A stretch of DNA of 64,000 bases from positions 124,001-188,000 of the forward strand of contig BROI01000001.1 of NCBI GenBank assembly GCA_027923505.1, in the 5' to 3' direction. The notes under the pieces are model-generated. The model worked only from the letters and a program-made list of their open reading frames with translations. It made no database searches and was not told where the DNA came from. The stretch comes from Mayamaea pseudoterrestris (lineage: Eukaryota). Shown here piece by piece: positions 404 to 42,198 of this stretch. Position 1 is the first letter of the stretch; the number at the start of each line of letters is the position of its first letter. The position numbers were made by a program, and so were the translations under genes.

Positions 404-1627
404 CTATCCATCGATGCTGCTGCTGTCGTCACTATTATCGTCGCTGTCGTCACCTTTCTCGCTGCCAGCGTTAATTTCATCACTGCCGCTGCCATCACTC
501 TCGTCGCTGCTAGCGTCCGATTCGCTAGGAGGATACTCATTCCCGGCGGCAACAATTTCGTCGTCGTCATTGTAAATACAGTACCCATCGTCTGCATCCG
601 ACAACCACGAACCATAGACTGTGCAGGGAAATCCTGGAAGGAGAGCCTGGGCGGCTTCCTCAATTTGATTCGGGACCGGCGTGTGGACGAAGAAAGTTTC
701 CGCATTCACGTCGTCACTCGTCACAAGGCGCGATGGAGGAGCATGCATTCGCAACAGATGTTTGGTCAAGGGCATGCCATGGCCCCGAAAGTTTCGCGGA
801 GCATCATCGAGATCCTCCAATGGCGCCATAGCACAATACATCAATCTGCGACACGCTGGGGTAAGGATCAAACCAATGAGTTTGACAGTACCCGTCCAAA
901 CACGCTCAAAAATGTCGTGGTCAAGCTTTGAGATCCCAGCAGATAATGATAGTTCCAGAATGATCTTGTCTCGTACCTCCGAATCAATCAATGAGTTTGC
1001 AATGGCAGCATCCACGTCAGTAGGAGTCTGGAACAAGAGCGGATGCCCAAAATCTTCGCACGCCTTTTCGTCTTGCCACTGCAAGTCCGCTAAGCAAACG
1101 ACTGGATAAAACATGTCGCCGCGCGCGCGTTCCTGTAACGCGCGGGTGTCGAAGGCTCGTTTGAGATATTTCGTAACAGAAATACTTACAATCTCCAAGA
1201 TTGTGTACAGGGTGTCGCCGCGAATCTCGAACCGATGCTCTCGCCGCTCCACTCCCGAGAGAGGGTCGTGATAGTTACGGGCGATGATTGCTTGGATTAT
1301 TTCGCTCCATTTTTGGCAAGGAAAGTTGCCTTGAAAAACTTCCAAGAAAGGAATTTCGCTAATACTATCCAAAGACCGCTTAAAGAGAATTTTGCGAAGA
1401 TTGTGACAAATCATTCGGTGCATGCGAATGCTGTCAAAACGAGGGTCCATGGGAAAGTCATGTCCAAGAGGCAAAAAGCTCCAATGTGCATCATGCGCCA
1501 AAAATTCTCGAAAATGTCGATTTGTAAGTTCCAGCGCAAGTGGCCCCGTAACATCAAGAAATCCTAAGATGCGACGAAGAACATTGGCGTCAAAGTCAAG
1601 AACGCTCGGCCGAGTTTGCGGGTCCAT
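404..1627 (-). CDS. F-box protein with putative degenerate histone H3-like and H4-like folds and an acidic tail
   Basis: 407 aa ORF. N-terminus [16 protein letters not shown]...LELTNRHFR...W fits the F-box pattern. Segments resemble H3 (aa ~75-185) and H4 (aa ~214-340). D/S-rich C-terminus. Confidence 0.65.
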   Translation of the reverse strand: [407 protein letters not shown]

Positions 1628-2328: not shown

Positions 2329-3033
2329 TTATTCGCCGCCAAACATCCACACCAAAATGCCTCCAAACAAACGCAAAGGTGCCGCCGACTGCGTTGACCA
2401 TCCTCGTAGCAAGTTTGCTTGGCCTTCTGATGATAAGAGAGCTGATGTCGCCTTATTCCCACGCCGCTTGGTAGTAGCATCATCACTCTTACGCGCCACA
2501 CCCGTCGCCGATGTACAATTGACAGCCTTGATGGACTTCAATTCAAGCCATACCTTTCCAGCAACTCCTTCCGCCCAGATTGCCATAGTTCCCATGTTTT
2601 CGAGTGCATCATTGTCGGGGCAGTAGCGCGAGTCTTCCTGGCATGTATGAATCGGATCGCCAGTGGCGTCATCCCAAAAGTCGGTGAACGAGTCAAAGGG
2701 CAAGATCAAATCACCAAAATCACCCACTGGAACGTTGCATAGAGTCGTCTTGTAGCCATAGGCAAAGTGCTTTCCACCCGGCGCATGCGCATTGCCAAAA
2801 CTGAACCGAAATCCATTATATGCAGCCGTTTCATTGTTGGTTCGAAGCGTCAACTGAATCGCTTGACATGATGAAACGTCTGGAAATGGCTTGCTGAAAT
2901 CCTCAACGACGCGCGCTTGAATGAATCCAGGTGCTCGCAGGAACCATACGTGTTCCACGCTTCCCTCAAACACTGCCGTTCCCGACCACCTCCCACGGCC
3001 AAAGGATTTGCCGCCCATGACTGGGTCGTTCAC
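2329..3033 (-). pseudogene. Second CIA30-like domain copy, in frame with 3067..3864 but cut off by one TGA and a scrambled junction
   Basis: Near-identical to the upstream copy (NDPVMGGKS, RAPGFIQAR, GYKTTL). No ATG start. Ends in a hydrophobic tail (LRLFGGILVWMF). Confidence 0.55.
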
Positions 3034-3776
3034 TCTCGCGCAACTCGGGATGCGGATGCGATAAATTCAAAATGATGCATCGTCATTGTCATTGCTACCA
3101 TCCGAGTGTGAGTGTTCGTTGGAAGTCTTGCTCTTTTTCGATGTACAATTGACAGCCTTGATGGACTTCAACTCTAGCCATACCTTTCCACCAACTCCTT
3201 CCGCCCAGATTGCCATGGTTCCCATGTTTTCAAGTGTATCGTTGTCGGGACAGTAGCGCGAGTCTTCCTGACATGTATGAATCGGATCGCCTGTCGCGTC
3301 ATCCCAAAAATCAGTAAACGCATCAAACGGCAAGATCAAATCACCAAAGTCGTCCACTGGAACGTTGCATAGAGTCGTCTTGTAGCCATAGGCAAAGTGC
3401 TTGCCACCTGGCGCATGCGCATTGCCAAAACTGAACCGATAGCCATTGTATGGAGCCGTGGCATTGTTGGTTCGAAGCGTCAACTGAATCGCTTGACATG
3501 ATGAAACGTCTGGAAACGGCTCGCTGGAATCCTCCACGACGCGCGCCTGAATGAATCCAGGTGCTCGCAGAAACCATACGTTTTCCACGCTTCCCTCAAA
3601 CACTGCCGTTCCCGACAACTCTTTCACTTGAAAGGTGCCAGTGGATTTGCCGCCCATGACGGGGTCGTTCATTTCGCGCCACTCGTGATGCGGATGCGAA
3701 AAATCCTCCAGCGTAATGCTATCGTCATTGTCATTGCTACCCTCCGAGTGTGAGTGTTCGTTGGAAGTCTTGCTCT
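2509..3776. repeat. Direct tandem duplication of ~630-640 bp (two CIA30-domain units)
   Basis: ATGTACAATTGACAGCCTTGATGGACTTCAA occurs at 2511 and 3141. The linker CGTCATTGTCATTGCTACC occurs at 3081 and 3723. Confidence 0.95.
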
Positions 3777-3864
3777 TGTCATGTTTATGGGCGACAACTT
3801 GATCCTGGTGGATTGAGCAGAAGCACGTGACAATGCTGATGAAAACTGATGCGAAAACCTTCAT
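3067..3864 (-). CDS. Secreted CIA30 (NDUFAF1-like) domain protein
   Basis: ATG at 3864 gives the signal peptide MKVFASVFISIVTCFC. W..MNDPVMGGKS is the CIA30 family signature. Confidence 0.75.
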   Translation of the reverse strand: MKVFASVFISIVTCFCSIHQDQVVAHKHDKSKTSNEHSHSEGSNDNDDSITLEDFSHPHHEWREMNDPVMGGKSTGTFQVKELSGTAVFEGSVENVWFLRAPGFIQARVVEDSSEPFPDVSSCQAIQLTLRTNNATAPYNGYRFSFGNAHAPGGKHFAYGYKTTLCNVPVDDFGDLILPFDAFTDFWDDATGDPIHTCQEDSRYCPDNDTLENMGTMAIWAEGVGGKVWLELKSIKAVNCTSKKSKTSNEHSHSDGSNDNDDASF

Positions 3865-4087
3865 TGTAAATAAGTATATACAATTGTAACTGTGGACGCA
3901 CAAATGTAACTTCAAGCCTTGTTCGATTCTCTGCCGTTTGACTTTGGCTTGGGATCCCTTGAACACTTTGGATCTCGTCAAAATAATATGGATGGGCGAA
4001 GAAAATGATAGTTGTCGGAGCGGTTCTAAATGAGTCGTGCGTACGATTGCTAGGCTCTCACTCGTTCGTCACACTCTTTCTTCCACC

Positions 4088-25706: not shown

Positions 25707-26577
25707 CTGGTTGAAAGAGACGCAAAGCGCAGCCTAAAGAAGCGACGAGAGTATATTGTTGAGTGTCGTCTTGCGAAGATTGGCGTACAAGAACCATTAC
25801 CATGAACGGATACAGGCAGCGCGAGATTATGGGACTGCAGTACAAACTCCAGCTCTTCCTCCGCCGTGATCAACATACGCGCTTTACAAAAAAGCGTCTC
25901 GAAAGCACCTTTCAAGCTTGCGTCCGCCGAGTGAAGCAAGTTGCCAATGACGATGCATACCGGTACCCAGTCGTTCGTCTGTTTACTTTGGAAGCGCACA
26001 TCGAGGAAATTTATCATCTTAATGACCATCCTGGGTGTTCCATGTTGGTTTCTGATGATCAGATTGGATTTGCCGATACTCCTATCCGTGCGGCCGACCG
26101 CGACGCGATCATTATAAAGAAAGCTCTGCTTGCCGGCTTTCCAGTCCTTGTCAATGACATTTTTTGAATCGGCACTGGCGAGCATTGTAAATATTATTAC
26201 CTGTCTCCACGAAGTCTTTCGGACGTTTATTGCTAAGCACGAGCTTTTGGAAGATTGTCTACTCTGTGCGCACCACAGCTGTCACTACCCGATGCCGGAC
26301 TTTTGGCGGCGAAGCAATGCTCCACCGTCATTGTTTCATTCATCCCGAAGGCCAGCGAGGAGTCTATCGCCACAGTCCGATGCTGCGGCAAGTCAAAGTC
26401 TCCGCGTCGCAAACCGTTTCAGTCTTTCCGAATATCCTTTCACAGTTAACGGACGACGGCTACCAGTACGAGGAGAGTGACAAGGAGGAGGAAGAGGAGG
26501 AGGACGACGACGATGAGGATATGGATGACGATGACAACGATGCAGATGCTTTGATTGATTACGATGCATGGAAATAG
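25707..26577 (+). pseudogene. Fragmented coding-like sequence ending in an acidic tail
   Basis: Protein-like fragments in three successive frames end in EEEEEEDDDDEDMDDDDND...WK*. Confidence 0.35.
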
Positions 26578-40974: not shown

Positions 40975-42198
40975 CTACCTGATACGCATTTCAGCCCAAG
41001 GAAAGCCCAACTTCTTTAGCTTCTCTTCACGTTCATCCGTCAACGGAGTTGGCCTTCCATTTCGCTTGTCAAGACCATATCTTTGCTGCAATATACACCA
41101 TGCACGCAAGCTTGTATTATGCCTCGTTGGTGGAAGGGTTCTGTGGGAGAGGCGTTGGAACTCGGCGAGTTCATTGTATTTCGCCAACCAAAGTGCTTCC
41201 GGCCGACTCCAGCAAAATTCCAATTCTTCGAGGCGACGAATCCGCTCTGGTGTCATGGAGCTTCTCGGATCACCTTCCTGATACATTTTGTAGCTTGATC
41301 GCTGATAGGCGACCCATCGAGCCAAGGATGGATCAGCTGCCCATTTCGCCGGAACGTTGGATGTCATATTGTTGCGATAGTAAGATACCAATCGTTCATA
41401 TTGGTGCATCCACATGGATTCATTCAAGTCCCACGTGAAGCCTATGGAATTCAGTAGACGTATACGCCCCGGCGTCATGCTCGTGTACTCTGATTCTTGG
41501 CGTTGGGTTTGATCGGAGTCTTGCTCGGAACGACAAGCGTTGCTTAGATAATCACCATTCTCGCCAGCTTCTCTATCGTCAATATTGTTCATTTGGTATA
41601 CTTTGTAGTGATGACGCTGTTGCACGCACCATCGAAAAAGCCTTTGATCGTCTTCTGTCACTAACTGCTCCATTTCCATGTCGTGGGGGAAGCATCGATG
41701 TTGTTTCAAAAACGTTTTGAGCTGTGCGAATTGTGAATTCCAATACTCATGATATGGGCCAAGTGAAAGACTCATATTGTACTTTTGCAAGAGTGTCGTT
41801 AATAAGTATTCCCGGTCGTCCGAGAGGATAAGGTGCGTGTGGCCCTGCTGCTTGCGTTGACACAAGAGTTGCTGTCGGTCCAGCCAGTTTTGAAGTTCAT
41901 CAGGAAACTGCAATTCTGATTTATCAACATGACTCATCTGTTGAAGATAATCCCGTAGCCTGTCGAAGGTTTGATACCATTGCTCATGGTGATAAAATGA
42001 GGATTTGTGAAGGGTTGTCGATGTCGGCCTTTGAGCTGCTGATTCCGTGTCATATATGTGGCTGAAACTAGGGATTCGATCGCTTGCGGAACTCAAACGA
42101 GCAGCATACTGGAACCAGTATTTGTCAAGCGTCGATCTCCTAGCAAAAGATCGAAAGATATCAAAGGAGGCGGTTCGAAGCAGCGGCCGAAGCGTCAT
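40975..42198 (-). CDS. Helicase-associated (HA) repeat protein, possibly organellar
   Basis: About 4 repeats of W...Y..L..Y......VP......L..WV..QR........ER...LE.LGF.W. Arg/Ser-rich N-terminus. Confidence 0.85.
   Translation of the reverse strand: MTLRPLLRTASFDIFRSFARRSTLDKYWFQYAARLSSASDRIPSFSHIYDTESAAQRPTSTTLHKSSFYHHEQWYQTFDRLRDYLQQMSHVDKSELQFPDELQNWLDRQQLLCQRKQQGHTHLILSDDREYLLTTLLQKYNMSLSLGPYHEYWNSQFAQLKTFLKQHRCFPHDMEMEQLVTEDDQRLFRWCVQQRHHYKVYQMNNIDDREAGENGDYLSNACRSEQDSDQTQRQESEYTSMTPGRIRLLNSIGFTWDLNESMWMHQYERLVSYYRNNMTSNVPAKWAADPSLARWVAYQRSSYKMYQEGDPRSSMTPERIRRLEELEFCWSRPEALWLAKYNELAEFQRLSHRTLPPTRHNTSLRAWCILQQRYGLDKRNGRPTPLTDEREEKLKKLGFPWAEMRIR

Follow-up and report, generated by a model that had tools for sequence, protein, structure and literature searches.

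A eukaryotic F-box protein family with a predicted single-chain pair of H3-like and H4-like histone folds

Fused histone folds are found in archaea, bacteria, giant viruses and non-nucleosomal eukaryotic proteins such as SOS. Giant-virus histone doublets are described as forming nucleosome-like particles (PMC8357426), and passages of a second paper give their usual order as H4-H3, with the medusavirus stheno doublet 'reversed' to H3-H4 (PMC9145170). A recent review presents present-day eukaryotes as being, as a rule, without fused histones (PMC10919886). Here we describe an open reading frame (ORF) of Mayamaea pseudoterrestris at positions 404..1627, minus strand, of a 64,000-nucleotide stretch of DNA (positions 124,001 to 188,000 of contig BROI01000001.1, assembly GCA_027923505.1; the whole stretch is called the window below). 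Its 407-amino-acid (aa) product, the query of our searches, very probably joins an F-box, an H3-like fold and an H4-like fold in one chain, the two folds pairing intramolecularly, with an acidic tail behind them. An initial annotation made from the sequence alone had proposed this F-box/H3-like/H4-like/acidic-tail architecture, and family profiles and two fold predictions with structure searches now bear it out.

The doublets of Marseilleviridae/Melbournevirus (H4-H3 and H2B-H2A) and of Medusavirus stheno likewise place two different folds in one chain and pair them intramolecularly, and the Medusavirus stheno protein has its H3-then-H4 order in common with the F-box family. However, the nucleosome-forming viral doublets are H4-H3, basic and DNA-wrapping, whereas the F-box family is H3-like-then-H4-like, near neutral and acidic-tailed. 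It differs further from viral doublets in its cellular nuclear-type neighbourhood, in its F-box and in the roughly 47 residues inserted into its H4-like half. Searches of open-access PubMed Central papers and bioRxiv preprints found, among the papers listed, no description of an F-box combined with a fused H3-H4, in agreement with the earlier statement that the architecture was undescribed; the only literature there that joined a histone doublet with the word F-box consisted of giant-virus papers, and the term 'F-box' is absent from PMC9145170 and PMC10919886. Two things are rated as new here: the type of putative substrate module joined to an F-box, and a histone-fold doublet in H3-then-H4 order that is cellular and non-nucleosomal. 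The features of the gene are as follows.

404..1627, minus strand: whole coding sequence, 407 aa from ATG to stop, stop codon at 404-406, no contig joint inside
1448..1627, minus strand: divergent F-box, residues 1-60, with helices 14-21, 27-35, 37-43 and 46-51
1328..1447, minus strand: H3 alphaN-like helix (67-85) and a short helix (93-97), residues 61-100, from profile alignment and model
1049..1327, minus strand: H3-like histone fold, residues 101-193, from profile alignment, model and conservation
983..1048, minus strand: linker with helix 204-213, residues 194-215, from the model
641..982, minus strand: H4-like histone fold, residues 216-329, from H4-only profile matches and the model
686..826, minus strand: insertion in the H4-like L2 region, residues 268-314, from model and alignment, with a beta-hairpin (300-303, 311-315)
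524..640, minus strand: conserved C-terminal extension, residues 330-368, with TVYGSWL (336-342), strands 342-344 and 350-352 and helix 355-362
407..523, minus strand: Ser/Asp/Glu-rich acidic tail, residues 369-407, modelled with a low predicted local distance difference test score (pLDDT) of 52-62

The query belongs to a sizeable family. In a library of 1.84 billion representative proteins, an exhaustive HMMER search at E<=1e-3 found the query and a further 66 relatives; at E<=1e-10 there were 24 matches, the query's own included. The relatives are 26-46 percent identical to the query, and many are about 400 aa long and align with it end to end. Word-index homologue searches recovered only the query and one relative (P0041), a result that is not evidence of orphan status, and the ESM Atlas returned only unnamed clusters (0.92 and 0.91) and F-box clusters (0.82-0.84). 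This is a eukaryotic protein family without earlier annotation. Three alignments were used: A1, which takes in 65 of the 67 proteins listed and omits P0062 (a fragment of 111 aa) and P0066 (856 aa long and matched only in nine short stretches); A2, the query's subfamily of 10 sequences; and A3, a different subfamily of 20 sequences.

Four conserved modules are seen in A1: the F-box; a helix 'IRxxQK..ST.NI' followed by 'LRGDT...L.E.VQ...RA...YP.LT..DL'; 'RDxIIRRLAxRAG..KM.N...W...PAC'; and 'HT.VP.QIE.AA...KVYG.WL', after which comes the acidic tail. The most conserved residues cluster in the second fold and at both loop ends: R136-G-D138-T139, Y174-P175, R224/R225/R229-A230-G231, W244, P257-C259, P296-P297, H315-T316-V318-P319-Q321-E323-A326 and V337-Y338-G339-W341.

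Structure prediction places two alpha1-L1-alpha2-L2-alpha3 units head to tail in the same chain. This was obtained for the query with A1 (AlphaFold2; mean pLDDT 87.5, predicted template modelling score 0.85) and for a replicate, P0015, a member of the other subfamily modelled with its own 20-sequence alignment (pLDDT 73.7, with block means of about 86-96 over most of both folds), which has the same layout. In an exhaustive comparison of the query model with 48,161 Protein Data Bank (PDB) representatives (VIA), ranks 1-10 were taken exclusively by histone-fold pairs, either single-chain or pseudo-dimeric: a fused H2A-H2B chain (Z 11.1 over 165 aa, root-mean-square deviation (rmsd) 3.2), M. kandleri HMk (1f1e; Z 10.5, 151/151 aa), Thermus 1wwi (9.8), two Melbournevirus doublets (7n8n_A and 9cvt_B, 9.8), SAGA core chains (6t9k_C and 7kts_I among them; 9.5, 8.7 and 6.6), the SOS histone domain (1q9c, 9.1) and Aquifex 1r4v (7.0). 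Next came F-box proteins (Z 5.1-6.5), and after them chains A/E of nucleosome entries, which lie on model residues 71-202 at rmsd 1.7-2.3 with alphaN included; we took these chains as H3/CENP-A by entry title and chain convention, and molecule names confirm several. The best unrelated chain reached Z 4.4 at most for the query model and 4.1 at most for the replicate. The replicate had the same ten chains at ranks 1-10, HMk being first (Z 10.8, 150/151 aa, rmsd 2.6), with the fused H2A-H2B chain at Z 10.1 and H3-type chains at Z 5.2-5.8. Foldseek against the PDB also put fused histone pairs mostly first despite weak E-values, and against BFVD it put viral histone doublets first, the Medusavirus stheno fused H3-H4 protein standing at rank 3 (E 0.014, prob 1.0).

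Two models from different alignments and the structure searches agree on the intramolecular handshake pair that the initial annotation had foreseen. The two halves are unlike each other in sequence: hhalign of the first against the second gave a probability of 1.7 percent, with no detectable internal repeat. A self-association prediction for residues 60-345, run without an alignment and with the fold uncertain in at least one run, scored 0.00 and is uninformative either way. SOS, the SAGA core chains, HMk, 1wwi and 1r4v have the same pseudo-dimer fold as the family (Z 7.0-10.5 for the query and 6.2-10.8 for the replicate, over nearly the whole target chains). However, they carry no F-box, they show no sequence similarity in profile searches, where only H3 and H4 were matched, and the H3 alphaN-like helix is a feature of the F-box family's first half and not of these proteins.

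The identity of the first half comes from profile searches. Among the best 60 of 90 PDB rows for the A1 profile (E<=10), 40 were H3/CENP-A-type, all of them on profile positions 68-158 (best E=0.0074), 8 were H4, 8 were F-box proteins (profile 2-80) and 4 were others, namely an acidic-tail match to Mak16, two Lon proteases and a prenyl synthase; H2A, H2B, archaeal histone, NF-Y and TAF chains were absent from these 60. The alignment with H3 runs from the alphaN helix through alpha1 and L1 and over most of alpha2. The first fold consists of alpha1 (103-119), an L1 strand (130-133), alpha2 (137-169, 33 residues), L2 (around 177) and alpha3 (179-193), and is preceded by an alphaN helix (67-85); H3-type chains align to the query model from residue 71 or 74 and to the replicate from residue 69 or 72. 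Within residues 61-100, R63, R68 and column 84 are conserved, the last being Gln in 38/44 rows and Arg in the query. Of the H3 parallels drawn earlier, the one at the start of alphaN is recovered, the profile consensus 'alrkirkeqkst' being aligned to the corresponding H3/CENP-A stretch, and FEIRGDT...KRA is in register with H3 L1/alpha2; opposite the 'PF' of H3 stands the W107 region of the query, not 'IPF'. The segment VVCLADLQ does fall on L2/alpha3 of the model, as had been suggested, but it lies beyond the end of the profile alignment. The query by itself matches no Pfam histone family at E<=10, PF00125 included, and phmmer against the PDB returned only urokinase noise (E 0.24). Judged by sequence, the first half is H3-like or H3-derived and not a member of the histone H3 family.

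The second half is matched by H4. The 8 H4 rows among the best 60 of the A1 profile all lie on profile positions 207-250 (best E=0.031), and 12/12 matches of the A3 profile in the PDB at E<=1 are H4, in register over alpha1-L1-alpha2 (best E=0.012). The 19-residue stretch that had been set beside H4 alpha1-L1 is accordingly in register in both profiles. The elements of this fold are alpha1' (216-229), L1' (around 235), alpha2' (239-267, 29 residues) and alpha3' (319-329). Helix alpha1' carries the family motif 'IIRRLAxRAG', which is common to H4 and is altered in the query, where Leu224, Glu225 and Ser229 occupy positions held by Arg in 55, 40 and 41 of 63 rows. The insertion that follows alpha2' carries the family's conserved R..PP motif. 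It also contains residues 295-307, a 13-residue stretch that the initial annotation had likened to H4 L2/alpha3; this parallel has to be given up, the stretch sitting between alpha2' and alpha3' and the true occupant of the H4 L2/alpha3 position being residues 315-329. A Cys259-Cys304-Cys307-His315 tetrad, which reaches from alpha2' across the insertion to where L2'/alpha3' begins, has all four residues in 25/65 rows and reads C-S-V-H in the query (window about 683-853, minus strand); the residue pattern suggests a metal (zinc) site in part of the family.

Directly after alpha3' comes TVYG (336-339), in which, out of 59 rows, 48 conserve V337, 50 conserve Y338 and 44 conserve G339. The match to 2hue_C, which we take to be H4 from the chain convention, ends at chain residue 97, facing model residue 334. 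Equating TVYG with the C-terminal motif of H4 is plausible: a conserved motif does stand where the comparison had placed it.

The charge of the protein is unlike that of real histones. Both histone-like halves are near neutral, with net charges of 0 (residues 61-200) and -7 in the query and of -9 to +9 per half in most rows, so the remark that this histone mimic has few basic residues was correct. The acidic tail noted earlier is also borne out: its net charge is -21 in the query (residues 346-407), and nearly all rows with a full-length tail are strongly acidic there, mostly at about -10 to -49. A basic N-terminal histone tail is absent, and the F-box stands at the N-terminus instead. Near-neutral halves combined with a strongly acidic tail make DNA wrapping unlikely, a property in which the family resembles SOS and the prokaryotic doublets of low isoelectric point (pI).

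The F-box is well supported in the family as a whole. Pfam F-box-like (PF12937) matches 38/65 members (best 3.8e-11) and PF00646 matches 23/65. Searched against the PDB, the A2 profile found FBXO3 (8.7e-5), FBXL17 (0.0027) and FBXW11 (0.0033), and 10/11 of its matches at E<=1 were F-box proteins, the eleventh being 'Ankyrin-repeat protein B' over profile positions 4-53. Model residues 4-80 superpose on F-box chains from Skp1 complexes in the VIA comparison, with FBXO31 first (Z 6.5, 73 aa, rmsd 3.1, residues 4-78), then Cdc4 (6.2) and FBXO3 (5.7), and Fbs2 and beta-TrCP1 lower (5.1 each). The query's own copy is a weak one by sequence, scoring E=0.19 and 12 bits against PF12937, for which the cut-off is 24.3.

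Several observations weigh against reading the protein as an F-box adaptor with an H3-H4-like pair. No individual sequence match to H3 or H4 is better than marginal (lowest E 0.007-0.03), the H3 rows are near-duplicates and not independent of each other, the A2 profile of the query's own subfamily has no histone match in the PDB at E<=1, and the 25 Pfam families listed for members include no histone model. What gives the histone assignment its weight is that only H3 matches the first half and only H4 the second, at the positions and in the order that the fold requires. Foldseek gave no match at E<=0.001 in either the PDB or BFVD, and VIA cautions that Z below about 13 can reflect an arrangement common among helical proteins; this caution is offset by the histone-fold pairs covering whole target chains and standing clear of unrelated rows. 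In the structure comparison the second half (residues 203-355) fits H2B-class, H4, Dpb4, NF-Y and TAF chains about equally (Z 3.6-3.9), so structure alone does not identify it as H4. The query, moreover, is divergent. In a quick tree, restricted to the 39/65 rows with at least 330 aa (the other 26 were dropped as fragments), its branch is long, at 1.98 where the median is 1.01, and it has lost the Arg224-Arg225 pair, Arg229 and the Cys pair. A Leu-Pro pair at the start of the box is a hallmark of F-boxes, and the query has lost this too, carrying Phe12-Asp13 where at least 90 percent of A2 rows carry Leu-Pro. By these sequence measures the copy in the window evolves fast and is derived within its family, and, being without Leu-Pro and sub-threshold in Pfam, it may fail to bind Skp1.

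The gene itself is a single uninterrupted ORF that fills 404..1627. It is covered colinearly by Logan contigs from four runs of one study, of a kind not recorded, and 7/8 base differences between contigs and window within the coding sequence are synonymous in the minus-strand frame, a pattern that suggests a constrained coding sequence in this small sample. Two further observations concern the contigs. In run X3, one contig links position 1708 to 1839 and omits the 130 nucleotides between them (1709-1838, GTAAGA...CTGCAG on the plus strand), which lie on the strand opposite the F-box gene and immediately upstream of its start codon; this could reflect a deletion allele, or else an intron in a plus-strand transcript that is antisense to the gene or overlaps it. 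Contigs of run X2 contain single-base gaps or insertions at 216, 270, 384, 1334, 2136, 2324, 2488 and 2796. The base missing at 1334 in one X2 contig would disrupt the coding sequence, and these indels are probably sequencing or assembly errors because they are scattered over coding and non-coding DNA and occur in one run only.

The explanation we favour, and consider moderately probable as a whole, is that the protein is an F-box adaptor whose binding module mimics a histone pair. Judging from F-box proteins generally, the F-box would dock on Skp1 of the SCF (Skp1-Cul1-Rbx1) ubiquitin ligase, and by this analogy a role as SCF adaptor is fairly likely. The histone-pair mimic would then be a module that binds a partner or substrate and not a histone that wraps DNA. 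Its likeliest partners would be free histone dimers, histone chaperones or further histone-fold proteins, all of which normally recognise H3-H4 or pair with it, although we put forward histones or chaperones specifically as putative partners only tentatively. The acidic tail may aid the binding of basic partners or cover the module's own surface. We infer that an uncharged single-chain look-alike of H3-H4 with an acidic tail would be poor at wrapping DNA and well suited to engaging proteins that handle H3-H4. A fuller scenario, speculative and rather doubtful, is that a cellular eukaryote lineage fused H3 and H4, removed their DNA-binding charge and joined them to an F-box, which yielded a family of SCF receptors. 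These would capture holders of H3-H4 (chaperones and assembly factors) or would themselves pair with histone dimers that are free, and through ubiquitylation they would regulate the supply of histones or the assembly of chromatin.

There are known links between ubiquitin ligases and histones with which this proposal can be compared. Rcy1 is an F-box protein. Four ligases, with Rcy1 among them, are described as promoting Cse4 turnover (PMC5561092). The Cse4/CENP-A turnover E3 ligases also link a ubiquitin ligase to H3-type histones, but they recognise histones by other domains, whereas the putative recognition module of the F-box family is itself a look-alike of a histone pair. In animals, proteins of the ABTB2/BTBD11 type are a candidate parallel that would combine a histone-fold doublet with ankyrin repeats and BTB, a Cul3 adaptor; open-access literature yielded nothing on BTBD11/ABTB2 with a histone fold, and the structure searches returned no chain of this type.

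Two alternatives accept the fold and assign it another function. One is that the histone-fold pair serves only as a scaffold, unrelated to histone biology as in SOS and the SAGA core, with an F-box that has possibly decayed and a protein working outside SCF. The SOS histone domain (Z 9.1) and two SAGA core chains (Z 9.5 and 8.7) are indeed among the best structure matches, and the sub-threshold, Leu-Pro-less F-box on a long branch fits such decay. Against this, the F-box is well conserved among the relatives (38/65 matched by PF12937), and the retention of H3-specific (alphaN) and H4-specific (alpha1-L1) signals suggests descent from real H3 and H4, which makes histone-related partners more plausible; we give the scaffold reading a minor share of the probability. 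The other alternative is a true chromatin histone variant, which wraps DNA or enters nucleosome-like particles and thereby places an SCF F-box on chromatin. The family matches the Melbournevirus doublets of nucleosome-like particles (Z 9.8) and the Medusavirus stheno H3-H4 protein, most members keep the Arg-rich 'IIRRLAxRAG' motif in the alpha1 helix, and Arg136 in L1 is conserved. We nevertheless regard this as unlikely, given halves that are near neutral family-wide, acidic tails, no basic N-terminal tail, and a query that is without Arg224, Arg225 and Arg229. The review PMC10919886 contrasts low-pI doublets of the DUF1931 type with a high-pI doublet that 'may bind DNA', a distinction that also speaks against a chromatin role here.

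The remaining alternatives question the fold or the gene. The resemblance to H3 and H4 could be convergent or an artefact, with a generic helical domain modelled by AlphaFold as a histone-like pair, and the marginal sequence E-values, the Foldseek E-values above 0.001 and the dissimilarity of the halves (hhalign, 1.7 percent) would all be expected in that case. This is distinctly improbable when H3-only profile matches, H4-only profile matches and structure matches agree in position and order, and when two alignments lead to the same fold, with HMk covered over 151/151 and 150/151 residues and histone-fold pairs filling ranks 1-10. Finally, the ORF could be a chance reading frame or a pseudogene: the four runs that contain the locus include none recorded as RNA, a plus-strand GT..AG joint lies just upstream, and one X2 contig is short of a base at 1334. 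Against this, the ORF is full length and can be aligned from one end to the other with relatives of comparable size, 7/8 differences are synonymous, and X2 indels occur at many other sites, which points to sequencing or assembly error at 1334; we hold this alternative to be very improbable.

Discussions of how the nucleosome arose treat fused histones as possible intermediates. The present family is a sizeable one in a cellular eukaryote setting, its halves retain H3-specific and then H4-specific sequence signals, and the fused pair would now form the main part of an adaptor for a ubiquitin ligase and no longer serve in chromatin. Should histones or their chaperones prove to be its partners, the family would represent a new mode of regulating histone supply; if the reading is true, it would also provide a natural single-chain H3-H4 mimic, potentially a useful tool. 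Standard histone models overlook such proteins: the query has no Pfam histone match, and the 25 families listed for the members include none.

In its wider setting the window looks like ordinary eukaryotic nuclear DNA, with a guanine-plus-cytosine content of about 0.47-0.53. The ORFs around the gene code for two CIA30-domain proteins in tandem, an amidoligase, a ShK-domain protein, a DnaJ protein, a class I tRNA synthetase, UPF1, ribosomal protein L7/L30, a SacI phosphatase, an inositol-phosphate kinase and an HA-domain protein; the 64-kb window contains neither a histone gene nor a Skp1 gene. A viral origin of the gene was considered and set aside, its neighbours being ordinary eukaryotic genes and pattern scans of viral contigs having found no relative. 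Scans with A2 patterns, which see only close matches to two short motifs, gave 15 pattern matches in a viral contig collection and 48 in JGI metagenome contigs, none of which was confirmed.

A possible decayed paralogue of the family lies elsewhere in the window (25763-26577, plus strand). The family hidden Markov model matches a stop-to-stop piece at 25763-26164 (E=8e-4 among 906 pieces searched) over profile positions 154-224, which correspond to L2/alpha3 of the first fold through alpha1'-L1' of the second. By eye, the similarity continues in a second frame after about 26165 and ends with an acidic tail in a third frame up to 26577; these continuations do not score, and an F-box was not seen upstream. 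Possible readings are a gene with an intron, a pseudogene or a match due in part to chance. A separate ORF of 407 aa at 40975-42198 (minus strand) carries three helicase-associated repeats (HA, PF03457; E=1.2e-36). The adjacent CIA30-domain ORFs at 2329-3033 and 3067-3981 (both minus strand) have long stretches of near-identical protein sequence, from which a recent tandem duplication follows, and variant copies over 3587-3794 are found in the contigs.

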